A stretch of 64,000 nt of DNA, from positions 1-64,000 of IMG/VR virus record IMGVR_UViG_3300034062_003925. One strand, given 5' to 3'. Both the position numbers and the translations under genes were made by a program. Below the pieces are notes generated by a model that was given only the letters and a program-made list of their open reading frames with translations, had not been told where the DNA came from and did not search any database. Shown piece after piece: positions 7,760 through 47,873 of this stretch. Source of the stretch: an uncultured virus (IMG/VR IMGVR_UViG_3300034062_003925). Lineage: Duplodnaviria; Heunggongvirae; Uroviricota; Caudoviricetes. Within the stretch, counting starts at the first letter, position 1. Every line of letters starts with the position of its first letter.

Positions 7760-8564
7760 CAAATTTTTATTTACCATACCAAAAGGAGATAAGTCAATTG
7801 ATTTACCTATCGAAATCAAGTGGGATTTCTATGGTAGAGATGATAGTATTGAACTTTATGAAGAAGAAGTTTTGGTTGATATTATTGGGGTGGCAAAAGA
7901 CTTTGAAATATTAAGATTTAGTCATTCACCATACATCTCGAATCAAAAGACAGAAATTAAATATGATTTTTATTTCTATGATTCTAGTACTCCGGTAAGT
8001 GCGTCAACGGTATCAACTGATTGGGTAAATAGTTATCTATTTCCAAATGCAAACCCTTCAGGCTTTTCAAGCACTCAAATTTATTATTATGAAAAACCGT
8101 TCACTAAATCATTTTTTAAACTTGATTTTTATGACACGAAGGACACCCAAAGCCAAACAAATTATTTTACAATAATAATTCCTGTGCAACAAGGAGCGAC
8201 AGAAAGTGCAAGTATTTCACCATTAAGACCAAATGTTAATATAAGAAAACCGTCATACACCTTAGATTTTGTTGGTGATAAAGAAGGGTTTTTTATTTAT
8301 TGGTTAAAAAATGAGGCGTTTTTAAATATTGATACGTTTTATATGTCCGCTAAATTTTTTGATGGTAGACTTGGTGTTTTTGTCAAGATGATGAATGAAC
8401 CACAATCAGTATTATCTGATAAATTTATATTTGAAAGTAGTCGATATTTTTATAATAAAGTAGTTTTAGATTATACTACAAAAACTTATCAGGTTTTTGA
8501 TTACCTTGATAACCGTATAGGTGCGGGAACACCAATAAAATGGTATGAATATATTAACCCATAA
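7752..8564 (+). CDS. Putative structural protein (270 aa)
   Basis: GTG start overlapping the upstream stop, within the tail operon. Confidence 0.55.
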   Translation: MSNKFLFTIPKGDKSIDLPIEIKWDFYGRDDSIELYEEEVLVDIIGVAKDFEILRFSHSPYISNQKTEIKYDFYFYDSSTPVSASTVSTDWVNSYLFPNANPSGFSSTQIYYYEKPFTKSFFKLDFYDTKDTQSQTNYFTIIIPVQQGATESASISPLRPNVNIRKPSYTLDFVGDKEGFFIYWLKNEAFLNIDTFYMSAKFFDGRLGVFVKMMNEPQSVLSDKFIFESSRYFYNKVVLDYTTKTYQVFDYLDNRIGAGTPIKWYEYINP

Positions 8565-9751
8565 TGGACGATAGATATTATAGTATACGAATTTCCCCCG
8601 AAGTTATTAGTGGTGATTTATTTCTTGCACCTTATGATGCTGGCACATCACAATTTAATATAAGTGGTGACCCTTGTTGTGATGTGACAACAACGACTAC
8701 GACTAGTCAATACACAGGTTATACTCGAGTATATTCTGCAATGACTCAAATAGTAACAGGTGGTACGGGAGGAACTTCATTATTGACGGGTTTGACTATC
8801 CCAATATTTCTTAGTGAAACCACAATCGATATTGGGTATTATTCGGTATTTGATGGAATGGTGTTACAAAAAGATACGATGACTAATTTCTTATTTTCCG
8901 CCTCAACCTATGCTCCGAACACATATTATTTTTATAATACTTCAGACACCGAGTTTAAAAAGTATTTGGCCTTTGCAACTTATCAGATTGATTGGGGGGA
9001 TGGTTCCCCACCACAATTGGTTCCTATTACGGCACCCAACTATTATAACCATACTTATGCTTCAAGTGGTGAATATACTATTACAATGTCGGGAATGAGT
9101 CCTTGGGGATATAACGTCATTAAAAAAGATGTTACGGTACCGTTTACAAATGTTATTGCAACTAACCCTAATGGGACGGCTTATTTTACTCCCGCGGGAG
9201 GTAGTTGGTCGGGGACTTCATTGATGTATGATTATTTATTTACGGGTGATTCTAATTGTGATGTGTATGACCAATCAAGTTACAATTACACAACTGTCCC
9301 ATTCTTAATTACTGGATATACCAATTCAACGATAAGTGACCTTGAACAATATGGTAGTAAGTACGACCCAACAAGGTTTGCGGGAAAATATAAGATAGGT
9401 GTTCAGGTAACAGGAACTTCAGGAAATGTTGGGACATTTTTTGGACCATCGGTAGATAACCTATACACCGCCTATACAATTAATGATATTAACTACTATG
9501 ATTATAATGATGGAACCACTGTGTTTACGGTTTATTCTTCAGGAATGACACCCGACATGATGGTTTGTTCAGCAATAACAAAAAATGAAGTATTATTAAA
9601 TGTAATTGATGAAGCAGAAATACAATCCAACGTTTTCATTGAAAGAGGTAAAAACTCAGTGTTAGAAAGACTTGAAAGATTAGGTGAAGTTGATAATGTT
9701 GGTGACCTCGAAAAATACGGATATAAATTTTTTAATGTGATAAAAATATAA
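8564..9751 (+). CDS. Putative structural protein with PKD-like Ig domain
   Basis: YQIDWGDGS...HTYASSGEYTIT matches the PKD WGDG/HTY motif. Poly-Thr tract near the N-terminus. Confidence 0.65.
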   Translation: MDDRYYSIRISPEVISGDLFLAPYDAGTSQFNISGDPCCDVTTTTTTSQYTGYTRVYSAMTQIVTGGTGGTSLLTGLTIPIFLSETTIDIGYYSVFDGMVLQKDTMTNFLFSASTYAPNTYYFYNTSDTEFKKYLAFATYQIDWGDGSPPQLVPITAPNYYNHTYASSGEYTITMSGMSPWGYNVIKKDVTVPFTNVIATNPNGTAYFTPAGGSWSGTSLMYDYLFTGDSNCDVYDQSSYNYTTVPFLITGYTNSTISDLEQYGSKYDPTRFAGKYKIGVQVTGTSGNVGTFFGPSVDNLYTAYTINDINYYDYNDGTTVFTVYSSGMTPDMMVCSAITKNEVLLNVIDEAEIQSNVFIERGKNSVLERLERLGEVDNVGDLEKYGYKFFNVIKI

Positions 9752-14100: not shown

Positions 14101-14219
14101 ATTATTATTTAACAACTACTGATACCGTAGTGTTATCTAATCAAGTGTGTACGGTGTCAGAACAAGGTATCAATTTTAAATTGAATATCGGAATAAACTT
14201 TAATATTTTATGTAATTAA
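11199..14219 (+). CDS. Baseplate wedge/tail protein with P2 gpI / T4 gp7-like segment (1006 aa)
   Basis: LKNLAQTLGW...LFKSKGTRKSIEILMRLIG resembles the L..LA...W / KGT...I motif of gpI-like wedge proteins. Confidence 0.55.
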   Translation: MAIKKYTCPPQSATGAGTFSDNLVGLQLVAGGGLTQGNFEFTTSTNEKTNRTFNTGTFSEPINLNSLGIESINQSKTIVENNFKVYPNFDLTQVTNFTMYGSMVKRMSASITTIISYFPGALESTFMGTNYITGPTANNILYSKTNNETSFDLDLSRLRNPFDIDFTVNSTRNLQLKEIQVSSLRDMRVEYLKYSLYYKGVGYNVVGIVPTTSLTSGTLKLYVYGNPFSGKTFTNDDLVIRPNDLEVNKVFNENLDEVENFLLNRNVSPKYTATFKVPKEAEDGSYYIQNTNISWPLYGEWNIDIITKSFETYITTINNISESFDLYRTNLVSRFLTTGAFKEFDTPDQKVEKVLQIYGKSFDDVKKYITALSYMTSVNYNVGNDIPSQLLKNLAQTLGWNINISPISETELLTSVFGTTNNNASVYPGISQQQTPDELNYQYYRNLILNSAFLFKSKGTRKSIEILMRLIGAPEALVEFNEYVYLADQKINLSQFDTQFAQISGGTYVQQIPILEAGNIFSIFGQTYTGFTTTGDIQDVNITLDEYPMDEYGYPTTPINSESYFFQMGSGWFEQTPQHRAPENIDLTNSVFVGNNPNYQTVLLPYSYGQEYLNRYRKFPFMDLGYTLRETIDNNKSWVNNEIGIRTNLDGNFNARYYVSDERLVLNVKNVDLFLNPAQGIAYDIWYMSQQYNYPIPNEGLNYVPPTPCDPKPYSPYPSRGGVDWTEINPQPKRKTFFEFAQTFWLNTINVRNRQYSSNGKTGGYPTLESIFWRYLQSNETIGIPNDNFTYKTMMEYVNGLGDYWIRLVEQMVPATTIWNTGVRLENSIFHRQKFVWRRQEGCQLIKIPCKPCSITSGLFSHDCPLETVECPIYPWTNHPTITTFNGVLGQLMTNYLTANGYNLNDCDFNGMTSEWFVDLQIDNVTVVKYPFFNGIGYSSPIYSVPTGTTYNDGLLIALESLKDYGYDYYLTTTDTVVLSNQVCTVSEQGINFKLNIGINFNILCN

Positions 14220-17200
14220 TGTCGTGTCTTTTATCATATACTATAAGCATAACAGGTGACTGTTTAAATGATTTATCAGGAGCGTTTAGTCTTGATATCT
14301 TGGGAAGTGCTCCTGACTATACAATACAGTGGATTAGCCCTTATACGGGGACTACATCATTAGGGGTTGGAATAGTTAATTACTCTGAAACAGGGTTATC
14401 AGGAGGAACATATACGTTTAAGATTATTGATAGTTGTTCACCGGCAAATACTGTCTTACCCGTCAATGTTTATATTTCAACAGGAACGTGTGTTAGTATT
14501 GTGAGTCAACAAAATACTTTATGTGGATTAAACAATGGTTCTGTTACCGCAACAACATCTAACTTATATGGAACAGGTAGTTTTTATTTATATGAAATGT
14601 CTGATGGGTATATTACTTCAGGTATTACTTTAAGTTCTTCATATGGTTTTGGAAGTTTATCGGCAGGAACTTATTATGTGGTGGCAAATGACGGTGGTGG
14701 ATGCACAGGTAAATCTGAGACATGTATTATTAAAGATTCATTACCACTTGAAATTGGTTTATACACCGTAAATGATGCGGGTTGTGCGGTTAATTCAGGT
14801 TCTATACATATAACAGGATTAACAGGAACGCCACCTTATACTTATCTATGGTCACCAGGTGGCCAAACAACTCAATCAATAACAGGATTAACCGCGGGAC
14901 CATATATTGTCACAGTAACCGATGGTTCGGGATGTGTGCAAAGTAGTGGAGTAACTGTAACAACAGTTCCTAATGTCGGATTGGGTGCTTTCACGGTTGA
15001 AAGTCCATCTTGTTTTTCTGCCGATGGAGAAGTGACAATAACAATAACAGGTGGAACTGCTCCATATTATTATTCAGGTTCTAATGGGACAGTTGCGGTT
15101 AGTTTTGCAACAACATATACTTTTACGGGATTATCTTCAGGTGTGTTTAGTGTACAAGTAACTGATGCGGGGTTATGTAATTTTACATCATCCACATCAT
15201 TATTAACTCCAGGAGGACTTTCGGTGACCTCGGTCAATATAACTAATTCGGCGTGTAACAATACTTCAGGTAAAATACAAGTAACCATTTTTGGAGGTTC
15301 TGCACCATATACATATACTTTAACAGATTCGTTAGGTAATTCAACAGTAATAACAGGTAGTTTTACTTCATGGACATTTAATGGTTTGTCTTCGGGTAAT
15401 TATACTCTAACAATATCTGATATGGGGCCATGCGTTTTTACACATGCCTATACCATTAATAATGTTGAGTTATTTACGTTATCGGTTGAGACCACTGGTA
15501 CAACTTGTAATTTAAGTGATGGTGCGGTTACTTTGAATATTACTTCAGGAGGAACGGGACCTTATAATTATGAAATTGATGGACAATTTACAATTATAAG
15601 TGATTTATCTTACACATTTACTGATTTACCTTCAGGTAATTATACTGCGACAGTTACCGATAATAATGGTTGTGCGCAAATACTACCATTCACGATAAAC
15701 AACTCAAGTACAGTTGATTTTGTGTTAGTTGGAGGAGACTCTACGGATGGGACTAATGGAACTATCGATACTTTTATTACAAGTGGAGAACCTCCATTTA
15801 TTTTAAATTGGAGTTCAAATGTTAATGGACAAACAGGATTAACAATTAATTCTTTATCCGCAGGAACATATACTCTAACCGTTATTGATGATAATGGGTG
15901 TGTTCAAACAAGAGACATTATAATTAATGGATTCAACGTGATATCTACTTACCAAACATTCAATATTTGTGATGAAGATTTTATGAATACGGGACAAACC
16001 GTTAGAAAAGGTCCTCAACAAATGTTAACTGAAGGATTTTACGATTTAACTAGCGGTGATACTAATTGTTTATTACAACAAACAATATTTTATGCCGAAG
16101 TGACGGTTAGTGGTAATACTCAGACTCAACCTTTTTATACGGGAACAACATTAAATGACTATCCTTTAGATAGTTTGTTTTACGATGTGGTTAAAGAAAT
16201 TTTATTATCTTATGAAGGTGTTGGAGAAGTTCTTTTAGATTATTTAAACAACATAATAACTATCGACACTAACTGTAATTCAAATGTATCGTTAATTGAT
16301 GTGGATGTTAAAATTGACTTAAAAATATCTTACGATATTGATTGTCAAAGTTGTGGGTTACCAACTCCAACTCCAACTCCAACTCCAACTCTAACTCCAA
16401 CACCAACACCAACACCAACTCTAGCAACATTACCAACAGTTACTACTGATGGATATGCAAATTTAGGTAATGGTAGTGCTCAAATAACAGGAACGATAGT
16501 GAGTAATGGAGGGTCAACAATAACCCAAAGAGGTATTGTTTGGGGCACTTCTCCAAATCCTACTATTGCTAATAATATAGTATCTGATGGTTCAGGTAAT
16601 CCTGACGCATTAGGACAATTCATACACACCTATATCATACCGAACCCACATATTCCCGTATATGTAAGAATATATGCTACTAATGCGGTTGGTACATCGT
16701 ATGGTGCTCAAGTTAGTTTTACTATGCCTTGTTTTATTAAAGGAACCAAAATAACTCTAGCAAGCGGACTTAAAAAGAACATAGAAGATATATCTTATGA
16801 AGATTCTCTTTTAGTGTGGAACTTTGATGAAGGAAGATTTGATTCTGCGACCCCTCTTTGGATAATGACTCCAGTACTTACTCAATACGTAAATATTCTC
16901 TTTAGTGATGGTTCAAAACTTGGAATATCCGGACATTTAAATCATGACGGAGGTCACCGTATCTTTAACTTAGATAAGGGAGAATTTACTTACGCCATAC
17001 CTAACGAACATAGCCCTATAGGAACTCGTACATTTAATGATAAAGGAAACATAGTAACAATAGTAGGTAAAGAAGAATCTACCGAGGTTGAAGAAATTTA
17101 TAACGTAGTAACAAACCGTCATCTTAATATATTTGCAGAAGGTATTCTTACTTCACGAAGATTAAATAATCTTTACCCTATCGCGGATATGAAGTTTATT

Positions 17201-17404
17201 AAAGACGAAAGGTCTATTACTTCAATAGAAGAATTTAAAGGTGTTCCTGTTGAATACTATGAAGGTTTAAGATTAGGTGAACAACCACTAGCAACTAACT
17301 CAGAAGGATTCTTAGTAAAAACACCAAAAGAATTGGCCTATACTCTTCCTACTGTCGGTGAGTTAACACAATGGACTGTGGAATTTATAAAGAAAAAGTT
17401 GTAA
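14219..17404 (+). CDS. SprB-repeat adhesin/tail-fibre-like protein with PT linker, FN3-like domain and C-terminal Hint domain
   Basis: Repeated G.I.I...GGT.PY.Y.W / L.AG.Y.V.V.D..GC units (SprB-like), then (PT)n, then PTVTT...GG..IT.RG..W...YVRIYATN..GT.YG, then CFIKGTKI...NIFAEGILTS. Confidence 0.75.
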   Translation: MSCLLSYTISITGDCLNDLSGAFSLDILGSAPDYTIQWISPYTGTTSLGVGIVNYSETGLSGGTYTFKIIDSCSPANTVLPVNVYISTGTCVSIVSQQNTLCGLNNGSVTATTSNLYGTGSFYLYEMSDGYITSGITLSSSYGFGSLSAGTYYVVANDGGGCTGKSETCIIKDSLPLEIGLYTVNDAGCAVNSGSIHITGLTGTPPYTYLWSPGGQTTQSITGLTAGPYIVTVTDGSGCVQSSGVTVTTVPNVGLGAFTVESPSCFSADGEVTITITGGTAPYYYSGSNGTVAVSFATTYTFTGLSSGVFSVQVTDAGLCNFTSSTSLLTPGGLSVTSVNITNSACNNTSGKIQVTIFGGSAPYTYTLTDSLGNSTVITGSFTSWTFNGLSSGNYTLTISDMGPCVFTHAYTINNVELFTLSVETTGTTCNLSDGAVTLNITSGGTGPYNYEIDGQFTIISDLSYTFTDLPSGNYTATVTDNNGCAQILPFTINNSSTVDFVLVGGDSTDGTNGTIDTFITSGEPPFILNWSSNVNGQTGLTINSLSAGTYTLTVIDDNGCVQTRDIIINGFNVISTYQTFNICDEDFMNTGQTVRKGPQQMLTEGFYDLTSGDTNCLLQQTIFYAEVTVSGNTQTQPFYTGTTLNDYPLDSLFYDVVKEILLSYEGVGEVLLDYLNNIITIDTNCNSNVSLIDVDVKIDLKISYDIDCQSCGLPTPTPTPTPTLTPTPTPTPTLATLPTVTTDGYANLGNGSAQITGTIVSNGGSTITQRGIVWGTSPNPTIANNIVSDGSGNPDALGQFIHTYIIPNPHIPVYVRIYATNAVGTSYGAQVSFTMPCFIKGTKITLASGLKKNIEDISYEDSLLVWNFDEGRFDSATPLWIMTPVLTQYVNILFSDGSKLGISGHLNHDGGHRIFNLDKGEFTYAIPNEHSPIGTRTFNDKGNIVTIVGKEESTEVEEIYNVVTNRHLNIFAEGILTSRRLNNLYPIADMKFIKDERSITSIEEFKGVPVEYYEGLRLGEQPLATNSEGFLVKTPKELAYTLPTVGELTQWTVEFIKKKL
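16361..16420 (+). repeat. 6-bp tandem repeat CCAACT/CCAACA encoding a (Pro-Thr)n linker
   Basis: ccaactccaactccaactccaactccaactctaactccaacaccaacaccaacaccaact seen directly. Confidence 0.95.
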
Positions 17405-17411
17405 CTTACTC

Positions 17412-17894
17412 ATGAAAATTCTCTTTCTTGACCATCAAGGAGTAATATACTTAGGGAAAGCGATTTGGCCAGATGGTAAACCAATACTCTTAGATTTTGA
17501 CCAAGGGGCGGTTAGTATTCTTAATGAAATAATAAGAGAGGTGGATTGTGAAATAGTTATCTCTTCTGATTGGAAAACGTGGGCAGATTTACCTAAAATG
17601 AAATCCTTTTATATTAAACAGGGAATAATAAAATCTCCAATCGGATATACGCCAATAACTAATATTAAGTATTTAGACGATATTGCTTATTTAAGAGCTA
17701 AGGAGATAAAAAAGTGGTTAGATTCTACAGGGAATATTACATCTTGGGTTGCAATAGACGACCTTGATATGGGAAAACATCTATCAAACTTTGTTTGGAT
17801 TGAGGATTCAAAAAAGGGTATAAAGGAGGAAGGAATAAAGAAAAGGATAATAGATTATTTATATAAATTCACCGAAACCCCCGGACATCTTTAG
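17412..17894 (+). CDS. HAD-superfamily protein (HAD_SAK_2 / RNA-repair-associated type)
   Basis: KILFLDHQGV (motif I, second Asp replaced by Gln), IVISSDW and WVAIDDLDM. Confidence 0.75.
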   Translation: MKILFLDHQGVIYLGKAIWPDGKPILLDFDQGAVSILNEIIREVDCEIVISSDWKTWADLPKMKSFYIKQGIIKSPIGYTPITNIKYLDDIAYLRAKEIKKWLDSTGNITSWVAIDDLDMGKHLSNFVWIEDSKKGIKEEGIKKRIIDYLYKFTETPGHL

Positions 17895-18107: not shown

Positions 18108-18178
18108 ATCTAATAAATATATACCAACACACCATTTATTAAAATTTAATGTTTAATATATTTAAAACAAACTCTATT

Positions 18179-19159
18179 ATGACTCAAGATTTAGTATTTG
18201 TAACCGCACAACCTGATGTCCCATATTTTCATTGGCAAGTCAAAGTATATTCATACAATTTTATAGAAATGGGTATCGACCCTAGTCAAATCCATGTAAT
18301 TTTTGCAATGGTTAATGGTAATACAGAACCAACAAAAGAATCTTTAGAACTTAAATCTATGGGAATTAATGTTCACCATTATTTAGATGCTCGACATCAA
18401 AAACATTACATCCCGAACATTAAACCATTTTTAATTTATAAATGGTTAGAACAATTTCCTGAATTTGGAAAATGTTTTTTCTTACATGATGCGGACATTA
18501 TTTTTAGGGAACTACCTGACTTCGAAAGTTTGTTATCTGACGATATAACCTATTTATCCGACACTGTCGGATACATTGGTTACAACTACATTAATGACTG
18601 TTGTATTCGATACGAGAAACATCACCCGACCTCTGATAAGGGACAATTGATTCAAGAGATGGTGGATGTTGTTGGAGTATCGGTTGATTGTGTTAAATGT
18701 AATCAAGAAAACTCAGGTGGAGGTCAATATATTATAAAAAACACTGATTCGTTTATATGGAATAAAATTTATGAAGATTGCACTCCATTATATGACCAAA
18801 TGATGAGTTACCAAAAAAGATTCCCAATAAGTCCGGGAGAGATACAGTTTTGGACTGCTGAGATGTGGTCTTTATTGTGGAATCTTTGGTACTTTGGGAT
18901 TGAAACAAAAATAACAAATGAATTGGGGTTTTCTTGGGCAACTGATAATGTTAATATTTATGAGAAACAACCCATATTACATATGGCGGGAGTAACTCAC
19001 GATTTAAAGGGCTCCAAGTTCTATAAGGGAGAGTTCATCAACGTCAATCCTTTAAATAAATTAAAAGAAGATATGAATTATTTTGATTTTGTTGATACTA
19101 ATAGTTCAACAATAAAATACGTTGAGATAATGAAAAGGATTGTAAAAAATCAATTGTAA
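18179..19159 (+). CDS. GT-A glycosyltransferase resembling plant protein O-glycosyltransferases (HPAT/GT95, SERGT1/GT96)
   Basis: Motifs YFHWQV, PNIKPFLIYKWL, FFLHDADIIFR (DxD) and WTAEMWS parallel YFDWQT, INKPAGVVHWL, ILDADMIIR and WISEMYG of that family as I recall it. The likely start is Met at 18179. Confidence 0.65.
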   Translation: MTQDLVFVTAQPDVPYFHWQVKVYSYNFIEMGIDPSQIHVIFAMVNGNTEPTKESLELKSMGINVHHYLDARHQKHYIPNIKPFLIYKWLEQFPEFGKCFFLHDADIIFRELPDFESLLSDDITYLSDTVGYIGYNYINDCCIRYEKHHPTSDKGQLIQEMVDVVGVSVDCVKCNQENSGGGQYIIKNTDSFIWNKIYEDCTPLYDQMMSYQKRFPISPGEIQFWTAEMWSLLWNLWYFGIETKITNELGFSWATDNVNIYEKQPILHMAGVTHDLKGSKFYKGEFINVNPLNKLKEDMNYFDFVDTNSSTIKYVEIMKRIVKNQL

Positions 19160-19174
19160 ATGTATTTATCGTAA

Positions 19175-20590
19175 ATGAGTAATAAGTCCCCATATAAAAT
19201 GACTGGTGAAACATCTTGTCTAACAACAGGTGTTAACGATTGTAATGTTATCACATTATTTCAAATGGGTGTTGAATGTAACGTATCACACCCAACATTA
19301 CCCGAATCGACTGACGGAATAGCTTCGTTAACAATAACAGGTGGGACTCCTCCATATACTATTATTTGGTTGAATGGGGGAATTGGTCCGATTATTTATA
19401 ATTTAAGTGCGGGGTCATACGGAGCAACGGTTGTAGATTATTACGGAGATTTTACGGCAAATACGACATGTATTTTGACAGGAGTAACCCCAACTACAAC
19501 TACAACAAGTACTAGTACAACTTCACCATATCCTAATGAATACGAATTATGTATGGTTACAAACATGTTAGTACAAGGGGTTTATGTGGAAACACAAACA
19601 CATTTTAACCCAAATGGAATTTATGATGGAAAACCGGCATGGATTTCTGACGACAGTCAACAAGCAATAATTTGGGATACATCTCAATCACAATGGTTAG
19701 TGTCCGCTGCAACACCAACTCTATATGTGATATCGAATTTAAATCCGACATATCCACCGATTTACGGTAGTTGGTTCCTAATTGGTAATACGGGTAGCGT
19801 TATTGTTTATGAAGGTCTTTGTCAATCATTACCTGTTGAAGGTAAACTTAAACTTGGAGAAGGAATTACTCCGTTAACTATGAATGTGACCAAAAATCAA
19901 ACTATTTGTGGATGTGATGGAGGGATTACAATAACTGCAAATGGGGGTACACCACCGTATACGTATTCTATAGATGCAGGATTGACATATAAAAATATGC
20001 CAATTTTTAATAATTTATGTTCTGGGACGTATAATGTTCTTGTTGTTGATGATAGTGGAATTATTACTAGTTCAAGTATTATTCTTAACTCACCATCAAA
20101 ACCTACAACATATAATGTTAGTTTAAATACAACATCAAAAACAGTTGAAATATCAAATAATAGTGTTACAAAACAATATGAGACGACTATTAAAATAACC
20201 CCACCACTACCTGACGGAGTGTCTTTAACGTTTAATATTACTCATTTAAATGTTTCAAAATCATCACCAAATTCAGAATCGGCAACATTTCAAAGTGATA
20301 GTGATTTAGTTATAAACGGAGATTCTCTTGAACCAATTGTGGGGTTTGATGAGTCAGAAACAAAAAGTATAATACCTGGGTGTCAATCAAATGATGTTTA
20401 TGTTTATTCAAATTCAGAACAATGGACTCAAGTCATTATCACTAACGCGGATATTTTAAGTTTAACTACAATAACTTCTGTAACAAAAAATGAATCAATT
20501 AATTGTTATATTGGGACGAGCGATGAAAAATATTCAATAACGAATTTAAAATTATCAGGTTGTAATTGTTGTACCGTAATTACTACATAA
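19175..20590 (+). CDS. SprB-repeat, Thr-rich, Cys-rich putative tail fibre/adhesin
   Basis: ITGGTPPYTIIW and ANGGTPPYTYSID SprB-like units, a PTTTTTSTSTTSP tract, and a C-terminal CNCC. Confidence 0.65.
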   Translation: MSNKSPYKMTGETSCLTTGVNDCNVITLFQMGVECNVSHPTLPESTDGIASLTITGGTPPYTIIWLNGGIGPIIYNLSAGSYGATVVDYYGDFTANTTCILTGVTPTTTTTSTSTTSPYPNEYELCMVTNMLVQGVYVETQTHFNPNGIYDGKPAWISDDSQQAIIWDTSQSQWLVSAATPTLYVISNLNPTYPPIYGSWFLIGNTGSVIVYEGLCQSLPVEGKLKLGEGITPLTMNVTKNQTICGCDGGITITANGGTPPYTYSIDAGLTYKNMPIFNNLCSGTYNVLVVDDSGIITSSSIILNSPSKPTTYNVSLNTTSKTVEISNNSVTKQYETTIKITPPLPDGVSLTFNITHLNVSKSSPNSESATFQSDSDLVINGDSLEPIVGFDESETKSIIPGCQSNDVYVYSNSEQWTQVIITNADILSLTTITSVTKNESINCYIGTSDEKYSITNLKLSGCNCCTVITT

Positions 20591-20616: not shown

Positions 20617-23151
20617 ATGGGATTTATAATAAAAAATACTGCAGGGTTAATTAATACAAGATTAACCGATATTGGACGAGAAAAATTGTCACAAGGAAAT
20701 TTTAACATCTCCTATTTCCAAGTTGGAGATAGTGAGGTCTCATACAATACCTTACCAACAAGTTATAATCAATTTGATACTGTAATATTAGAGCCGAGCT
20801 TCAATGCTCAAAATTCAAGTGGGATTCCAGAATCAAATAAAAGTAATGTAAAATATCCTTATTATGTTGATGGGAGAGCGGGTAATACTTATGGAATTCC
20901 TTTTATGGATTCTCAAGTAAGTCCTGTATTTAATAGAGCGGTAATGAGAGGGTTCTTTACTGGTAACACAAGTGCTGAGACAATTAGTTGGAGTGCGTTA
21001 ACTAACAATTTTTACGCTATCAATGCTAACTACGTTGTTCAGATGAACTCATTAGTTGGAACCAATAAAATTACTCTTATTAGTAATCCAAGTAATCCTG
21101 ATTCAGTTAGAGAGCCTGCTATTGGAGATATTATCACAATTTATTATGATGGTAAAGGTATGGATAATTGTATTTGTTTAAATCTCCCGACACCGACACC
21201 AACACCAACAATCTCAGTGACGCCTTCGGTAAGTCCTCAAAGTGGTTCAACACCAACACCTACGCCAACATCATCTAATTCGTTCCCTTGTGATTCACCA
21301 ACACCTACTCCTACACCGTCTAAAACTCCTTGTTTAACACCGTCAACAAGTAGAGCATGTCCACTACCATCACCACCTGATTGTTTGGTTGATATGAGTA
21401 GTTGTTACTCAATGTTAACATATAAAATTGTTAACATTTGTTTGGGTGAGATAACATTAGATAGACCTACACCTAATTTTATAAATGTAACAAGCGTTTG
21501 TTATGGTAGAGTGATAGTTTATCCTCCTAACATGACAACGATATACGATAGTATTACACCTAGCCGTCATTGGAATGACAATGTCATTAATTTTGAATCA
21601 GTTTGTTATACTGACGAGTTTGATGTTAAAGTTTGGAATATGAATATTCCATGGTCAGAAAATCCTGCAGGTCTAATCTCATCAATCAGTAAAGACTATA
21701 CTAATTTTGGTTCTGTCGCTTACTTAGGGGCTAAAGAATACTTTGGATATGCGTCAAGTAGTGGACAAACAGATAGTAGTTCAGTGTATTATTTTAACTC
21801 TTTTGGAGATAAAATTAATGTGTTACCTGAACAACAAAAGGCGATTGGAATTATCCATTATACAAACCAAACGGTGGATTTATTCTACGGTGAAAAATTT
21901 GCATTGGAACCATTTGACCCATCAAATCCTGCTGATACTACGGGAGAGGCGAGAAACTTTAAAGTACATATCCCTTGGTTAATGTGGCATAAAAATCCTG
22001 ATTGTTGTAATGGTCAAACATTTTGGGTTGACCCTCCAGGATTTGAAGATTTAAATCTTTTCCAAGTTCAATACCTTCAGTCAACTAAGAATGTTGATAT
22101 GAATAACCCTGGTATGAGATATTACCATCTATGGGACACAAACGCAAATGCTAACGGTATTCCTAATAGAGTTGGTAAAGTATTCCCTGATGATAAGTTG
22201 GTTATTATTGATGATGAGGAAATCATTGCAGCAATGTCCTACAAATCAAATAGAAATTGGACAATACCATCACCTAAGATATCATTAATTACTCCAAACA
22301 CTTGTGGTAACGATAGTTCAACAGTTACGGGTATATTAACAGGTTTAACAGAATCGTTGTATGTCACATATAGATTAAGTAATACAGATTTATTTACCGA
22401 TTCATTACATTGTAATTATTATTCGTTTATTCAAGGACCTAATATTGATTGTACTACGATTACATCCCAAAATGTTGCGGTTAGATTCGGTGGGGAATTT
22501 GGTTGTTTAAATCAATCTTATTATCCTACAACGACTACAACAACAAGTTATAATCCTACAACGACTACAACAACAATTTATAATCCTGTAACTACAACAA
22601 CAACATCAATATGTCCGATATACTGTGACGTAACTCAAGGATTCTTGGCTAATAAATTTGAGATTCTTTGTCAAAAAGTTGTTGGTAATGAGAGACCTAA
22701 CTCTTCTGAGTGGGTTGCTATTGATTTCACAAGTCAGTTATCATCAACAATGGTTAATGGTTATATCACCCAAGAAGGGTTGACGGGTAATACATTTGTT
22801 ATCACCCAACAAGAGTATGACAATGCTCCGGCATATAACTTAAACACTTACATTCCATTAACACCTGTAGGATATACAGGAACTTCTTTGAATTTTGGTG
22901 ATGAGTATTATTTCTATGGTTCTTTGGAAACTGACATCCAAGCAACTATCTATGAAATGAAATATAAGATTAATTTAGGTCAAGCGGAATTTCAAACAAC
23001 ATCGAATCCGACATGGACAAGTGGTAAACCTACTTTCGTAAGTGAAATAGGGCTTTACGATTCGAACAAAAATCTTATGATTATATCAAAAATGCAATCA
23101 CCCGTTTTAAGACAAGGTATTCAGCAGTTTTTGATTAAATTCGATATTTAA
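20617..23151 (+). CDS. Tail collar/fibre-attachment protein (DUF3751-like termini) with PT- and Thr-rich inserts
   Basis: N-terminal LTDIGREKLSQG..ISYFQVGD and C-terminal VSEIGLYD...LMIISK resemble the tail-collar fibre domain. Internal PTPTPTP and YNPTTTTTT repeats. Confidence 0.6.
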   Translation: MGFIIKNTAGLINTRLTDIGREKLSQGNFNISYFQVGDSEVSYNTLPTSYNQFDTVILEPSFNAQNSSGIPESNKSNVKYPYYVDGRAGNTYGIPFMDSQVSPVFNRAVMRGFFTGNTSAETISWSALTNNFYAINANYVVQMNSLVGTNKITLISNPSNPDSVREPAIGDIITIYYDGKGMDNCICLNLPTPTPTPTISVTPSVSPQSGSTPTPTPTSSNSFPCDSPTPTPTPSKTPCLTPSTSRACPLPSPPDCLVDMSSCYSMLTYKIVNICLGEITLDRPTPNFINVTSVCYGRVIVYPPNMTTIYDSITPSRHWNDNVINFESVCYTDEFDVKVWNMNIPWSENPAGLISSISKDYTNFGSVAYLGAKEYFGYASSSGQTDSSSVYYFNSFGDKINVLPEQQKAIGIIHYTNQTVDLFYGEKFALEPFDPSNPADTTGEARNFKVHIPWLMWHKNPDCCNGQTFWVDPPGFEDLNLFQVQYLQSTKNVDMNNPGMRYYHLWDTNANANGIPNRVGKVFPDDKLVIIDDEEIIAAMSYKSNRNWTIPSPKISLITPNTCGNDSSTVTGILTGLTESLYVTYRLSNTDLFTDSLHCNYYSFIQGPNIDCTTITSQNVAVRFGGEFGCLNQSYYPTTTTTTSYNPTTTTTTIYNPVTTTTTSICPIYCDVTQGFLANKFEILCQKVVGNERPNSSEWVAIDFTSQLSSTMVNGYITQEGLTGNTFVITQQEYDNAPAYNLNTYIPLTPVGYTGTSLNFGDEYYFYGSLETDIQATIYEMKYKINLGQAEFQTTSNPTWTSGKPTFVSEIGLYDSNKNLMIISKMQSPVLRQGIQQFLIKFDI
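22519..22608 (+). repeat. Three tandem 30-bp units encoding Y(Y/N)P(T/V)TTTTT(S/I)
   Basis: tattatcctacaacgactacaacaacaagt / tataatcctacaacgactacaacaacaatt / tataatcctgtaactacaacaacaacatca. Confidence 0.9.
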
Positions 23152-24055: not shown

Positions 24056-26038
24056 TTATGATGAACATGATGCACAATTACCAAGTAATGTTACGGTTAT
24101 TATGTTAGTTGAACTATTAATGAATGGTGTTGTTAATGAACAGAATGGTAGTGTTGTTGTGTAATCATTAATTACCATAACCTGTCCTAAGTTATCGCAA
24201 TCAATGTAACTCATATATACTGAGGAGAATTCTGAACCTTGTCCATTTATAGGACCACCATTTGATACTGTATAACAATTACATGTTAATGGTGGACATA
24301 CATCATTAGAACATATATCAAGTTTTGTAATACTATATGGGTTTAAACTAGTTGTTGTTGGTAATGTTAAAGAACAAACATATGTTGGTATTGTTTTTTG
24401 GCTTATTGCACTTGTTCCCAACCCATTACAATCAAAATAATTAAATATTGTTTGTGCATTCGCAATTAATTCGTAACAAAAACAAGGTGTTCCACTTGGA
24501 GTTGGTGTCATTGTTGGGGTTGGAGTTGGTGTAGGACTTGGTATTACAACACATGAAACACATTCACCTAAGTTAGAATAACCTGTTGGACCTTCAACTA
24601 ATTCAATTGTATTAACACCAATAATATTATCGTTTATACCTACAAATGAAATACACTTAAGTACATCGTCAACATATGCTTTAAAAATCATGAACTCAGT
24701 TAAAGTACCTCCAGAAGGAGTTGGTACTAATTCTGTTGTGTAATACATCATACCTGTAACACAGTCTTGGAATTGTTTACTACTTGGACAACCAATATGA
24801 CCATCAAGTGTGGTAAAAGAAACGTCACCCAATACATTACAAGGTCTTATTATGATGGGTGATGATGATGGTGTTACTGTTGGAGTTGGAGTAGGTGTCG
24901 GGCTATAAGTATCGATTGTTGCGTCAACACCAACCATTGAACAATAATTTGTTGAACTTGGTGTTACGGTCATTGTTGGGGTGATAGATGGTGTTGGGGT
25001 TGGTGATGGGGTTGGTTCTGCCATACAATCAAATATTGCATCAAAATCAAAATTTATACAGGCGGCAGTTGTTGTTGTGGTTGTTGGACACGACCCCGAA
25101 AAGAAAATTTCTTCACATAAGTCAGGACAGATTGAAAAACACGGTGATTTACCTGATAGTTTAGGTTCACCACCTAAACTGTCTGATAAACACCATTGTT
25201 TATCTATTGTGTTATAGTAGATAAACCAAAGTCCTGAACCACTAATCCAATAGGAATAACCATCATAGTTACCGTCTAAGGTGTAGTTATCGTCATATTC
25301 GTTACCTGTGTTGGTTATACAATAAGCAGGACAAGGGCCGCAAACTTCTGTAGTTGAACAAGGGCCTAAATCGGTAACAGTAGTTGATTGATTTGTTTTT
25401 AATGGTAATTCTACGGAACAAATATAGTTATTTAACCCATAAAAAGTTTGGCCAGATGGGTTTCCGTCACAATCAACATAAGACACGTAATCACCGGCCT
25501 CATCTACTACATCTATTTGGTAACATTTACAACAAGGAACACAACCCACTCCCTTTGTTACCCATGATGTAAGACAGGCTGTACAATTGTTAAATAACAA
25601 TGAATATTCTAAATAAACTTGGTTACCTAAAGCGTTTAGAATGTTACTTTCAATACTAACAAATGTGTAACAACCTTTAACTAAGGTGTTGTTGATAGTA
25701 CAATCGTTAGCATTTGTTAATTCGGTTACGCAAATAGTATTACCTGTTTGTCCTGATGTAAGGGTTGTGGTATCACCTAAAATATAAAAAACATCATTTG
25801 TGCAACAACTACTAAATGAGAACGCTCGGGTATTTCCAGAGTATGTTGTTACATTGGTAAAGGCTGGATTTGGGACAAAAGTTGTTGAATCGGCGGTTAT
25901 ATAGTATTTGGTACTTCCACTAGGAAGAGTATCACCACTAAGAACAGTTACGCTACACGGATTACCATTACAATCTGTGAAATTTTGGGTTATTGGTGAA
26001 GATGTTGCATTAGTTAATCTATAGGAATAACAACTCAT
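24056..26038 (-). CDS. Very Cys-rich, PT-rich repeat protein (660 aa), putative fibre/decoration protein
   Basis: Four C.CY...(Y/F).DC.G-type modules (some degenerate), three PTPSPTPT tracts and one poly-Thr tract. Confidence 0.65.
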   Translation of the reverse strand: MSCYSYRLTNATSSPITQNFTDCNGNPCSVTVLSGDTLPSGSTKYYITADSTTFVPNPAFTNVTTYSGNTRAFSFSSCCTNDVFYILGDTTTLTSGQTGNTICVTELTNANDCTINNTLVKGCYTFVSIESNILNALGNQVYLEYSLLFNNCTACLTSWVTKGVGCVPCCKCYQIDVVDEAGDYVSYVDCDGNPSGQTFYGLNNYICSVELPLKTNQSTTVTDLGPCSTTEVCGPCPAYCITNTGNEYDDNYTLDGNYDGYSYWISGSGLWFIYYNTIDKQWCLSDSLGGEPKLSGKSPCFSICPDLCEEIFFSGSCPTTTTTTAACINFDFDAIFDCMAEPTPSPTPTPSITPTMTVTPSSTNYCSMVGVDATIDTYSPTPTPTPTVTPSSSPIIIRPCNVLGDVSFTTLDGHIGCPSSKQFQDCVTGMMYYTTELVPTPSGGTLTEFMIFKAYVDDVLKCISFVGINDNIIGVNTIELVEGPTGYSNLGECVSCVVIPSPTPTPTPTMTPTPSGTPCFCYELIANAQTIFNYFDCNGLGTSAISQKTIPTYVCSLTLPTTTSLNPYSITKLDICSNDVCPPLTCNCYTVSNGGPINGQGSEFSSVYMSYIDCDNLGQVMVINDYTTTLPFCSLTTPFINSSTNIITVTLLGNCASCSS

Positions 26039-26253
26039 AATAAACTTAGGTTTTCAATTACAGTACAATTATTGTTATCAACAATTTTTAAATTAAAGTC
26101 GTTTTGACTTGATATTATGGATGGAATTTCGAATACATATGGTGTTGACGAAATTGTGTCAATATATATACATGTTGTAATCGGATTATCACATAAATAA
26201 ACATCAAATGGTGACGACCCCGTAATTGTGTTGATTGTAATGTCTGTGGGCAT
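26035..26253 (-). CDS. Small Cys-containing putative virion protein (paralog of 23819..24046)
   Basis: Likely start MPTDITINTITGSSPFDVYLCD at 26253, with a TATTTAT motif 14 nt upstream. Confidence 0.65.
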   Translation of the reverse strand: MPTDITINTITGSSPFDVYLCDNPITTCIYIDTISSTPYVFEIPSIISSQNDFNLKIVDNNNCTVIENLSLL

Positions 26254-26335
26254 TTTATTCTTTTTAGATAAATATAATGAACCTATAAAACTTGTGAAGA
26301 TTGACAACTATTATTATATTTCTTATTTTTAATCC

Positions 26336-36054: not shown

Positions 36055-36384
36055 ATGAAAAAAATTATTGAATTTGTTAAAAATTATAAGATACATATCT
36101 TAGCGTCTTTGTTGGTCATTTTCTTCTTCCGTTCATGCTCCAAGTCAAGTGAGGTTAGAAAACTAGAAAAATCTAAAACCAAAACCACTGAAGTTATCGA
36201 TAGTTTGACAACAGTTATAAAAGGTCAGAAAGACACTATTAATAATATTTCTGAAGTCATTAGAGTTGAAAAAATCAAAATTCATACCGAATACGATAAC
36301 TACATTTCATCTAAAAATAGAGGAGAACAATTAATGGAATTACATAAGATTGTTAAACAAAATCTTAAAAACTTAGAAAAATGA
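36055..36384 (+). CDS. Putative spanin/lipoprotein (signal anchor + coiled coil)
   Basis: ILASLLVIFFFRSC hydrophobic stretch ending in Cys, then a coiled coil, upstream of the amidase. Confidence 0.55.
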   Translation: MKKIIEFVKNYKIHILASLLVIFFFRSCSKSSEVRKLEKSKTKTTEVIDSLTTVIKGQKDTINNISEVIRVEKIKIHTEYDNYISSKNRGEQLMELHKIVKQNLKNLEK

Positions 36385-37088
36385 AAAAAATTTGGGAATG
36401 GATTAAATTAAATCCGAATAGAGCCATGTTTTTGGTTCCAATACTTTTAGTAGCGGGTATTTCAATTTCACACGTTGTTTCTTGGTATAATCTTGCAAAT
36501 CCAATAAGTTGGGCTATCTACCTATCTATCGCAATTGAGATTGGTGCGATGACTGCATTGGTTGCCGCAACTAACAAGATTAAAGGAGGGGTATGGTTTA
36601 TGTTTGGGTTAGTGACCTTTATTCAAATGATAGGGAACATATTCTTTTCCTATAAAGAAATTGACGCCAATGGAGATTTATTTAAATCATGGGTTGAATT
36701 AACATCACCTGTTTGGGATGCGTTTGGAACGGACATAACTGATGTTATTTCACTTAAAAGATGGTTGGCGTTTTTGGAAGGCGGATTATTACCTATCATT
36801 TCATTAACATCTTTACACTTTTTTATTAAATATGAAGATGATAAACCTGACTCTACAACCGTACATGATACCGTACATGATACTCCCAAAGTTGAATCAG
36901 AGACTCAAATAACTGATTTGGTGGATGATTTGGATGGGAAGGCGGAAATAGGTGAGATAATGGATGAGGAATCATTAAGATACTTTGACATCCAAGAAAA
37001 TCTAATATCTAATATCACAACAACAACAACCAATGATGGGGTTAGAAGATTAACCTATAGTAAACCAGTTAATTTAATAAACCTTTAA
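36381..37088 (+). CDS. Multi-pass membrane protein, putative holin
   Basis: About four hydrophobic segments, next to the endolysin. A 12-bp tandem duplication lies at 36858-36881. Confidence 0.5.
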   Translation: MKKIWEWIKLNPNRAMFLVPILLVAGISISHVVSWYNLANPISWAIYLSIAIEIGAMTALVAATNKIKGGVWFMFGLVTFIQMIGNIFFSYKEIDANGDLFKSWVELTSPVWDAFGTDITDVISLKRWLAFLEGGLLPIISLTSLHFFIKYEDDKPDSTTVHDTVHDTPKVESETQITDLVDDLDGKAEIGEIMDEESLRYFDIQENLISNITTTTTNDGVRRLTYSKPVNLINL

Positions 37089-45085: not shown

Positions 45086-45190
45086 TTGTTTCTTTTTTAT
45101 AATAATATAGGAGATTTTGGATTTTATCAATAAAATTGTCGGAATTATTTATTTTTGACACACTTTTCTTATTTTTTGGGATATATTATC

Positions 45191-46024
45191 ATGAATAAAA
45201 TAATCAATTTCACACCAACAGGAACACAAACGACAAGAGATAATTCTTTTGCTCCGTTATTACCATCTGAAATAATTGATGAGGTTCATGAGGCGTATGA
45301 ATATGGTATTACGATGGTGCATATTCACGCCAGAGACCCTGAGACATTAAATAATAGTAGTGACAAAAATCACTATAGACCCATTATAGAAGGGATTAGA
45401 AAACATTGTCCTGATTTATCTATATGTGTATCTTTAACTGGTAGATTCGAACCAAATATTGACAGAAGGACTGAAGTCTTAGAATTACTTCCCGATATGG
45501 GGTCATTAACCATGTCCTCATTAAATTTCCCGACAGGTGAATCAATTAATTCTCCTGATACTATTTTGAAATTAATCCAAAAAATGGATGAATTTGGTGT
45601 TATTCCTGAAATCGAATGTTTTGATTCAGGAATGTTAAACTACACCAATTATTTGATTAAAAAAGGTGTCTTAACGGGTCCTCATTACATTAATGTTATA
45701 TTGGGTAATATGTATAACGCACAATCAGATGTTGCATCACTCAATTCGATAATTCAAAATAAACCTAATAATAGTTTATTATGTTTGGGTGGTATAGGTA
45801 AAGAACAATTGTCGTCTAATCTGTTAGGTTTATTATATGCTGACGGAATTAGAATTGGTTTGGAGGATAATTTATACTACACAGATAAAGTCAAAACAAC
45901 TAATGTTAAATTATTACAAAGAATTCGTAAGATAATGGACGAAATGGGATTGGGTGTTATATCTCCATTAAATTTTAAAAACTTAGGTTATGGAAATAGA
46001 AAAATTAACAATACTTGGATTTAG
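45191..46024 (+). CDS. kce: Beta-keto acid cleavage enzyme (BKACE / Kce, DUF849)
   Basis: IINFTPTG, P.EI..E...A...G..MVHIHARD, PDMGSLTMSSLNF, PEIECFD and DGIRIGLEDN. Confidence 0.88.
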   Translation: MNKIINFTPTGTQTTRDNSFAPLLPSEIIDEVHEAYEYGITMVHIHARDPETLNNSSDKNHYRPIIEGIRKHCPDLSICVSLTGRFEPNIDRRTEVLELLPDMGSLTMSSLNFPTGESINSPDTILKLIQKMDEFGVIPEIECFDSGMLNYTNYLIKKGVLTGPHYINVILGNMYNAQSDVASLNSIIQNKPNNSLLCLGGIGKEQLSSNLLGLLYADGIRIGLEDNLYYTDKVKTTNVKLLQRIRKIMDEMGLGVISPLNFKNLGYGNRKINNTWI

Positions 46025-46631
46025 TGAGGCGACATTAACAATGTTATTAGATATTTTGAATTCAAAAGGTCTTTATCCATCCATTGAAATCATCAATAAC
46101 TTGGGATTATTACCAACAAAAAAATACGAACATCCCAAGTTCAATATCGAAATTATTAATGATGTGGATATCAATAACAAAATGGTTACCTTGGGAGTTG
46201 GTAAGGTTAAAATGAGAAAAATAGTTAGTAATGTATTCGAGGTAAATAAAGACACTCTTTTGGTTAACCTAATATCGGATAACTCTGATATATCTCAGAC
46301 AGTTAAATTAGGTAGGGGGATAGTTGTTAATACTTTGGTAAGTATTGCTGGTCACACAACGATTGGTGATTTTGTATTTATTAATAGAAATGTTAGTATT
46401 GGTCATCATACCGTAATTGGTGAATACACAACAATAAATCCTGGTGTTAATATCGCTGGTAATGTAGTAATTGGTGAAGGTTGTCAAATTGGTATTGGAA
46501 CAAATATTATTGATGGTATTAAGATTGGTAATAATACCATTATTGGTGCGGGTTCAGTAGTTACTAAAGACATTCCTGACAATGTGGTTGCATATGGAAA
46601 CCCTTGTAAAATAATTAGAAAAAATGGCTGA
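45990..46631 (+). CDS. Sugar N-acyltransferase, NeuD/PglD-like left-handed beta-helix
   Basis: Hexapeptide repeats, SIGHH catalytic His region and GAGSVVTKDIP...GNPC. Confidence 0.88.
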   Translation: MEIEKLTILGFSEATLTMLLDILNSKGLYPSIEIINNLGLLPTKKYEHPKFNIEIINDVDINNKMVTLGVGKVKMRKIVSNVFEVNKDTLLVNLISDNSDISQTVKLGRGIVVNTLVSIAGHTTIGDFVFINRNVSIGHHTVIGEYTTINPGVNIAGNVVIGEGCQIGIGTNIIDGIKIGNNTIIGAGSVVTKDIPDNVVAYGNPCKIIRKNG

Positions 46632-47253
46632 AGGGGTATATAAAATAACTGAGGAGTTTGAAAAAAAGATTTCCGATTATACTGGTGCTCCATATGTGGT
46701 GACTGTTGACAATCAAAGCAATGCGTTGTTTTTGTCATTATATTATGAAAACATAAAAGGAAAAGAAATTGAAATCCCTAACAGGACATACCCATCAGTA
46801 CCTTGTGAAATTATACATGCTGGTGGTAAAGTTAAATTTTATAAAATTGATGGTGAAAAATTGAAGGGGGCTTATCAGTTAAAACCAACAAAAGTATGGG
46901 ATTCGGCATTAAGATTTACCGCTAATATGTTTATACCTAATACGCATATGTGTATTTCATTTACGGGGCCATATAAACATTTAAAACTATCAAAAGGTGG
47001 GGCAATACTAACCGATGATATTAAGGCATATGAATGGTTTAAACGGGCTAGGTTTAGTGGTCGTGGAGAATGTTCTTATCACGATGATGAATTTTATATG
47101 TTAGGTTGGAATTTTTATATGATGCCTGAATTATCGGCTAGAGGTTTATTAATGATGAATCAATTTTATGATTATGATGGTAATAAAAAGATGAATGATG
47201 ATATTGAATTACCATATCCTGATTTATCTAAGTTTAAAATATATACACAATGA
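46624..47253 (+). CDS. DegT/DnrJ/EryC1/StrS-family PLP aminotransferase (short form)
   Basis: EFEKKI..Y.G..Y, WDSA, and SFTGPYKHL...KGGAILTD with the PLP Lys. Only 209 aa. Confidence 0.8.
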   Translation: MAEGVYKITEEFEKKISDYTGAPYVVTVDNQSNALFLSLYYENIKGKEIEIPNRTYPSVPCEIIHAGGKVKFYKIDGEKLKGAYQLKPTKVWDSALRFTANMFIPNTHMCISFTGPYKHLKLSKGGAILTDDIKAYEWFKRARFSGRGECSYHDDEFYMLGWNFYMMPELSARGLLMMNQFYDYDGNKKMNDDIELPYPDLSKFKIYTQ

Positions 47254-47873
47254 AATTACACATTATAACCCCACTTTATCGTTTTAATTTATTAGAACAA
47301 GTTTATAATTCAATACTCATAAATGACGATATAACTTGGCATATCTCAAAATCAAATAAACGAGAAGAATTGGATTATGATTTTTTAAAAAAAGATAATA
47401 GAATTAGATTATATAATGTTGATTGTGAAGATACTGATACAACTTCTAAAAGAAACGCCGTTTTTGATAATATTAAAGATGGGTATTTTTGTTTATTAGA
47501 CGATGATACTATTTTTCACGAAAATATGTATATGAAATATGTTGATTGTGTAGAACATAATTTTATTGGGATGTTAATAGGTGAACAATTAAATTACTGC
47601 GGAAAATTAAGATTAATAGCAAGTAAACCTGTTTTTAATAAAATTGATACTGGAAACGTTTTATCACACTATTCATGTCTTAAAGAACTTAGATGGCCTT
47701 CAAAGCACATTGAAGGAAAAAATCATAAGGACTTTTTATTTTGGGATTCGGTATATGAATTTTATGGGAAAAAATGCGGAATATGGAATCAACCAATATC
47801 CTATTATAATAAATTAAAAACAAATCCTGTTAATCAGGAATATGGAAAAAAATTTACAGATAGAATATCTTGA
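47250..47873 (+). CDS. GT-A (GT2-like) glycosyltransferase
   Basis: LHIITP.YR, KRN, FCLLDDDT (DxD), IDTG and D..F motifs. Confidence 0.75.
   Translation: MKLHIITPLYRFNLLEQVYNSILINDDITWHISKSNKREELDYDFLKKDNRIRLYNVDCEDTDTTSKRNAVFDNIKDGYFCLLDDDTIFHENMYMKYVDCVEHNFIGMLIGEQLNYCGKLRLIASKPVFNKIDTGNVLSHYSCLKELRWPSKHIEGKNHKDFLFWDSVYEFYGKKCGIWNQPISYYNKLKTNPVNQEYGKKFTDRIS

Follow-up and report, generated by a model that had tools for sequence, protein, structure and literature searches.

What does a predicted glycosyltransferase (GT) do among phage genes whose products carry threonine- and proline-rich tracts? This question is raised by a gene at 18179..19159 (+) in the sequence of an uncultured phage, of which bases 1-64000 form the window (a stretch of 64,000 bases, to which all coordinates refer unless another locus is named). 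The source record is a 74,966-base linear virus sequence that is rated 26% complete, and the phage genome should therefore be roughly 290 kb; relatives of this jumbo lineage were found on contigs of up to 318 kb. The GT and the tract-bearing genes come after a Baseplate_J gene at 3-815, and the window also encodes GlnII, DnaJ and a sigma factor. By its gene content, and by that alone, the phage resembles the moraphages, which are large phages from aquatic habitats that encode glutamine synthetase, DnaJ, a sigma factor and four core putative GTs and have Bacteroidota as predicted hosts (PMC12619734, in the part available). The same part of that paper contains neither the present GT family nor Thr tracts, the word 'threonine' occurring 0 times.

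We examine this gene by means of structure prediction, profile comparisons and the joint occurrence of enzyme and tracts across related loci. We will argue that it likely belongs to an undescribed and widespread type of phage virion O-glycosylation, made up of a new soluble GT family related to GT95/GT96 and a portable poly-Thr tag, the tag in this reading being gained and lost with the enzyme gene on capsid, tail-tube, decoration and fibre proteins.

The enzyme and its distant relatives

The open reading frame (18149/18179-19159, +) encodes 336 aa from the first ATG at 18149 and 326 aa from the ATG at 18179, which is the start position in most homologues. The product is a full-length member of PHROG 4417 (phrog_4417, E 3e-69), the 'prophage pi2 protein 34' family. 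Both PHROG 4417 and nearly all GenBank records label this family as unknown or hypothetical, and the GT function and the link to a tag are unannotated. The four motifs listed in the initial annotation are all found in the translation, namely YFHWQV (residues 16-21), PNIKPFLIYKWL (79-90), LHDADIIFR (102-110) and WTAEMWS (225-231), a set that we take to be that of the plant HPAT/SERGT1 enzymes.

The predicted structure (pLDDT 97.8) adopts a GT-A fold. Its first element is a beta-strand (residues 6-12), and there is no N-terminal membrane helix in the model, hence no Golgi type II anchor as in GT95/GT96. In established GT-A chemistry the DxD motif binds the metal and the NDP moiety, and this role is predicted here for D104-A-D106 (18488..18496, +), which is invariant in 102/102 aligned sequences. 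The predicted third metal ligand, the C-terminal H268 (18980..18982, +), is equally invariant (102/102) and aligned with the invariant His of the PF23452 proteins, and the WTAEMW motif (W225-W230; 18851..18868, +) aligns with WESDM of bacterial PF23452 proteins. The model and its fold matches bear out the assignment as a glycosyltransferase, for which NDP-sugar transfer is predicted, and the missing anchor points to a soluble enzyme.

The nearest solved folds are mostly GT8/GT24 enzymes, with 8-12% identity and an rmsd of 3.4-4.5 A. The fold neighbours are glycogenin, LgtC, UGGT, the Skp1 galactosyltransferase, LARGE1 and the PBCV-1 capsid glycosyltransferase 2p6w, and GlyE is also among the best structural matches. 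No HPAT or SGT1 chain is found among the fold matches listed, and the protein has no sequence-level match in the PDB and no match to Pfam GT8.

We now turn to the relation with the plant enzymes. GT95 (HPAT1-3) and GT96 (SGT1/SERGT1) are related Golgi type II membrane enzymes acting on Hyp or Ser (PMC8012813, available part). The phage protein has no match to Pfam PF23452 (HPAT) at E<=0.1 (gathering cut-off 23.9 bits), and 3/102 family members reach only an E value of about 0.05 (best E 0.046). The nearest named clusters in the ESM Atlas include those of PF23452 (18 of 30 hits), the Pfam family being carried by 10% and 58% of the members of the clusters shown. The family profile scores 19-27 bits on five bacterial proteins encoded beside family members, and the two of these that were scanned are both above the PF23452 cut-off (34.4 and 26.5 bits). 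An hhalign comparison of the GT family with 51 bacterial HPAT-like proteins, 47 of them picked from 120 homologues listed and 4 taken from the loci, gave 87.7% (E 3.4e-6, 265 columns), as compared to 0-2.7% for six control GTs (three other bacterial and three Che8 enzymes). The alignment is full-length, with W-Q, Y-x-P-x-x-K-P, DxD, W-x-x-[DE]-M and the C-terminal His in register.

These comparisons indicate that the family is detectably related to the GT95/GT96 group as a distant relative, the link running via the bacterial members and not via plant sequences. Membership in GT95/GT96, on the other hand, was ruled out: there is no Pfam HPAT match and no membrane anchor, and many of the tags discussed below are free of proline. 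What stands of the plant HPAT/SERGT1-like assignment is thus the kinship, seen in both hhalign and the ESM Atlas. While the plant enzymes are Golgi-anchored and act on Hyp or on Ser of Ser-Hyp, the phage enzyme is predicted to be soluble and tracks Thr runs, often Pro-free. Common to both is that they would initiate O-glycans on low-complexity structural proteins.

Threonine runs and PT repeats in the jumbo lineage

The tracts that had been named in five neighbouring genes are all present. Four of the products have a run of at least five Thr (T>=5), for which the chance expectation is 0.7-3.3% of 2000 shuffles per protein, and are regarded as candidate acceptors. These are a 395-aa PKD-like protein (8564..9751, +; PKD match below cut-off, E 0.003), whose T6 run lies at 8687-8707; a 471-aa SprB-repeat protein directly 3' of the GT (19175..20590, +), in which a Thr/Ser tract at 19487-19528 has T5 inside TPTTTTTSTSTTSP; an 844-aa lineage-conserved protein (20617..23151, +) with PT repeats at 21187-21321 and runs of T6, T6 and T5 from 22525; and a 660-aa Cys-rich protein (24056..26038, -), encoded on the opposite strand past a RuvC gene, with T6 at 25067-25087 and PT repeats. 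The fifth, a 1061-aa SprB-repeat protein (14219..17404, +), carries its (PT)n at 16361-16420 and is without a T>=5 run. Its residues of about 838-1061 form a Hint-like region (Hom_end_hint E 0.016, below cut-off), possibly a self-cleaving domain.

The initial annotation placed these genes in a tail module. The block does follow Baseplate_J, SprB repeats occur in the 14219 and 19175 proteins, and the former has a weak 'virion structural protein' PHROG match and weak tblastn matches to fibritin genes. The 20617 protein, however, has only a tract-driven match, to a PHROG of unknown function, and no informative domain match, and the 24056 protein has no domain or PHROG match. The tail identity is thus an interpretation, and it is from gene position that we infer the 20617 and 24056 products to be in the virion.

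Some further features of the locus can be mentioned here. A HAD_SAK_2 phosphatase gene (17412-17894, E 4e-20) is inserted just 5' of the GT, and among 79 syntenic loci this insertion is present only in the phage's own sequence. In some relatives the region between the baseplate genes and the primase is flipped, such that different tract genes adjoin the GT (24056-26307 in the window; loci L225, L229, L232, L233 and L239). The sole T>=5 run outside the structural block, considering ORFs of at least 100 aa in the whole 75-kb record, is a T5 run in a membrane-like protein near an amidase (36381-37088). The genes clustered at 45155-47873, which encode a beta-keto acid cleavage enzyme, an acyltransferase with hexapeptide repeats, a short aminotransferase of the DegT-like type and an unassigned 207-aa product, could relate to sugar or acyl modification.

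The co-variation of enzyme and tracts was assessed in 79 loci anchored on the 20617 gene. Five loci that lack RuvC, all of them GT-positive and four of them bearing Thr runs, were excluded, and four were dropped because their contig ends before the GT slot; three of the latter (L220, L241, L288) have Thr runs and no GT seen. Among the 70 scored loci, one of which is the phage's own sequence, T>=5 runs are present in 59/60 GT-positive and 0/10 GT-negative cases, whereas (PT)n repeats are present in 58/60 and 10/10, respectively (Fisher p=1.0). For the orthologues of the 20617 protein, which is the best candidate acceptor by virtue of this co-variation, the corresponding numbers for T>=5 are 55/60 and 0/10. 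De-duplication to 39 loci gives 32/0/0/7, the sole discordant locus (L251) being lost in the process. On the tree the GT state changes 5 times, and the Thr runs follow in 4/4 independent contrasts, in none of which PT presence shifted with the GT. No GT match was found elsewhere on the whole contigs of the 10 GT-less loci, these contigs being 9-41% complete and the search having no positive control.

The feature that co-varies with the GT is thus the pure poly-Thr run, and not the extensin-like (PT)n. Of the co-occurrence proposed in the initial annotation, the part concerning Thr runs holds and that concerning PT repeats does not. This bears on the idea that the enzyme of this jumbo phage glycosylates (PT)n linkers into stiff stalks that would resemble mucin and resist proteases. 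PT repeats are indeed plentiful around the gene, their Thr residues could be a side substrate, and L251 retains a GT with intact motifs although its tracts are PT and TTT only, with no T>=5 run. However, the persistence of the repeats in all ten GT-negative relatives, the 0/4 concordant contrasts and the many Firmicutes tags without Pro make these linkers extremely unlikely as the substrate.

Joint occurrence in Firmicutes phages

The system is not confined to a Bacteroidota jumbo phage. In a tblastn search with the GT, 77/50,697 phage records were matched (many of them duplicates), nearly all being Firmicutes phages, in addition to Chryseobacterium phage MA9V-3 and an Arcanobacterium phage. 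We inspected 13 cultured phages, selected for spread and not at random. In these the GT is located among late structural genes, and a Thr-rich coding stretch lies directly 5' of it in 13/13 cases. In 10/13 the gene that contains the stretch has an annotation, be it as tail tube, as Ig-like or decoration protein, or as hypothetical. In the remaining 3/13 it lies just past the capsid stop codon, out of frame in the Enterococcus phages 9183 and nattely and in frame in bIL285 (L087:9785-9880, L491:4740-4880 and L488:4931-4970, respectively); the out-of-frame tract suggests a programmed frameshift that would tag only some capsid subunits. The GTs of LP65 and 521B are the most divergent, and these two phages show mixed repeats instead of pure Thr runs. 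The protein 5' of the GT in 1706 is annotated as 'major structural protein', and the Thr-rich protein two genes 5' of the GT in LP65 as 'structural protein 2-D,MS'.

For the Firmicutes phages, a capsid or tail-tube gene with the tag excluded was used as the anchor, and GT and tag were then scored. With the phiFL tail tube (27 loci), 12 loci have both and 15 have neither, with 0 discordant; with the iLp84 capsid (70 loci), the numbers are 36, 34 and 0. Three loci at contig ends, one of them tagged, were dropped from the iLp84 set, and L308, retrieved by both anchors, was scored in the phiFL set only. The phiCTP1 tail tube (12 loci, 2 dropped) gave 5 with both and 7 with neither. In the three groups together, the tag thus matches the presence of the GT in 109/109 loci. 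Even among capsids that are 94-99% identical, within one prophage group, the tag is present exactly when the GT is. Another gene with a tag, over 2 kb away from the anchor, is found in 47/53 GT-positive and 2/56 GT-negative loci, and the two exceptions (L365, L367) each retain a T7 tail-tube tag. When the four groups are pooled, 11/11 independent tree contrasts on well-supported branches agree (p=0.00098), with no group significant singly and with trees that are approximate owing to phage mosaicism. Moreover, in 77/80 viral loci anchored on the GT a long ORF contains T>=5, and the remaining 3 end early downstream. Taken together, the comparisons suggest that the GT and the Thr runs on phage structural proteins are gained and lost jointly, and very tightly so. 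The short C-terminal tags on the capsid and tail-tube subunits of small phages fit better with a surface coat than with a stalk.

An association of this kind could also arise if the GT modified DNA or the host surface, for restriction escape or superinfection exclusion, while the tags merely hitch-hike at the 3' end of the adjacent gene. The tag is often 0-100 bp from the GT, roles of this kind are well known for phage GTs (PMC12619734, available part), and the GT carriers VPE25 and VFW possess glycosylated DNA (PMC4999554, available part). However, tagged second genes at a distance of over 2 kb co-vary with the GT as well, which argues against simple hitch-hiking, and in the phages inspected the GT gene is placed amid late structural genes. 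In VPE25, moreover, the DNA modification has been assigned to a T4-like beta-glucosyltransferase (PMC4999554, available part). No DNA glycosyltransferase is named among the fold matches listed, a result that is still compatible with a DNA role. All in all, we consider the hitch-hiking scenario very unlikely.

Another option considered was that a host O-glycosyltransferase primes the tags, and that the phage GT only elongates or caps the glycan in a GT8-like manner. Glycogenin, LgtC, the Skp1 galactosyltransferase, GlyE and LARGE1, which are the best structural matches, mostly use sugar acceptors, and some lactobacilli and streptococci possess cytoplasmic Ser/Thr O-GlcNAc transferases. Since the nearest folds are mostly glycan-elongating GT8/GT24 enzymes, the structure gives no support for initiation on Thr. 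On the other hand, the nearly identical capsids that are tagged only with the GT show that the tag follows the phage gene and not the host. Furthermore, the hosts of the carriers are diverse (Enterococcus, Clostridium, Staphylococcus, Lactococcus, Chryseobacterium), and the members of GT95/GT96, the closest family by sequence, are initiating enzymes (PMC8012813, available part). Elongation alone is therefore an unlikely role.

In the converse direction, 80 viral loci were chosen by a nine-Thr-codon pattern. The run is in an ORF of at least 150 aa in 41/80, and a GT is found within 10 kb in 7/80, in six of these within 150 bp of the tagged frame. Poly-Thr is thus enriched close to the GT, but by no means confined to its neighbourhood. 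There are also GTs without T>=5 runs: L432, which has a short TTPATT tail, and L464. In an MA9V-3-like prophage (L494:13792-14631), EQD replaces DxD with loss of the first Asp, the NSGG motif is gone and there are no Thr runs, and here enzyme and tags have possibly decayed together.

Proposed mechanism and wider setting

The mechanism that we propose, and consider the most likely one, is the following. The GT would be a cytoplasmic, metal-dependent GT-A enzyme, made late in infection, that uses the DxD motif and H268 to bind a divalent metal and a host NDP-sugar. During infection, it would move the sugar to the Thr hydroxyls of runs in the phage's own structural proteins, the poly-Thr run acting as a genetically encoded acceptor tag. 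In the small Firmicutes phages the tag would form the C-terminal tail of capsid, tail-tube and Ig-like decoration proteins, and in the jumbo lineage an internal linker in the 8564, 19175, 20617 and 24056 proteins. We infer that the Thr run is the acceptor, on the basis of its joint gain and loss with the GT, that the GT initiates the glycan, and that the tract proteins of the present phage are in the virion. As to the chemistry, one may guess at a retaining reaction by analogy with the GT8-like neighbours. The donor is likewise a guess, as is the purpose, which could be a surface shield, protease resistance, solubility or altered adhesion. A variant in which the GT-A fold instead puts a sugar-phosphate or polyol-phosphate on the Thr runs, like the Stealth-type phosphotransferases, would leave the tag as the acceptor but appears very improbable.

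In tailed phages, virion glycosylation is regarded as a rarity of the mycobacteriophages, where it alters antibody recognition (cited in the available part of PMC11256854). In Che8 and relatives, glycans have been reported at the capsid and tail-tube C-termini (Freeman et al. 2023, Cell Host Microbe; cited in the available parts of PMC12619734, PMC11256854 and PMC10877033). The Thr tags of the Firmicutes phages occupy the same positions, and in both cases the GTs are phage-encoded. The Che8 GT genes, however, are located towards the right end of the genome and apart from the structural genes, while here a single GT is inside the structural operon beside a repeated poly-Thr tag. An enzyme of the mycobacteriophage type was rejected, as Che8 gp108, gp109 and gp110 do not align with the GT family (hhalign 0.2, 0.1 and 0.0%, with the limited sensitivity of a profile against single sequences), and there is no Mycobacterium phage among the 77 tblastn records. 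We have thus a probable case of virion O-glycosylation, strongly supported by the comparative data, in which the enzyme would come from another family and the acceptor tag can be recognised.

In the freely accessible literature searched, no description of the enzyme and Thr-tag pair was found, and no glycan, activity or virion proteome for these proteins. In the parts available, neither glycosylation nor threonine is mentioned in the paper on MA9V-3 (PMC13120357), and phage Thr tags are not a topic of a survey on low-complexity regions (PMC6821194). If the proposed mechanism is correct, many cultured phages bear glycans that would have gone unnoticed in structural and proteomic studies. These phages would include Lactococcus 1706, Lacticaseibacillus iLp84, PLE3, Enterococcus VPE25, VFW and 9183, several Staphylococcus siphoviruses and Chryseobacterium MA9V-3. 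Sugar-coated virions would then be common among dairy, enterococcal, staphylococcal, clostridial and Bacteroidota phages, with a bearing on phage therapy and virion stability. The tag would make glycosylation predictable from sequence and directly testable, and the enzyme, as a small soluble relative of GT95/GT96, would be a possible tool for making mucin-like glycopeptides.

The family extends to bacteria. In 80 loci from bacterial assemblies, a T>=5 run is nearby for 44/54 short GTs but for only 1/26 long fused ones. As 25/26 of the long fused homologues are without Thr runs, the family as a whole has other acceptors. Chromosomal or integrated members in Bacteroidota (L437, L439, L442, L446, L457, L475, and L428 with the GT at about 6000) are often fused to GT7C. 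The long forms inspected there occur in clusters with a C39 peptidase-ABC transporter, HlyD, a LanC-like gene or radical SAM/SPASM genes, with no poly-Thr nearby. The LanC-like, radical SAM and peptidase-ABC neighbours suggest peptide or protein acceptors, and these long forms may glycosylate exported peptides or proteins. In Myxococcales and Actinomycetota (L450:2145-5197, L440, L438, L461, L469), the family GT carries a fused F5/8 domain, joined in L440 by one of the GT60 type, and is paired with a PF23452 HPAT-like gene. The latter is fused to PqqD in L450 and in most of the homologues listed, and represents a bacterial HPAT-PqqD family.
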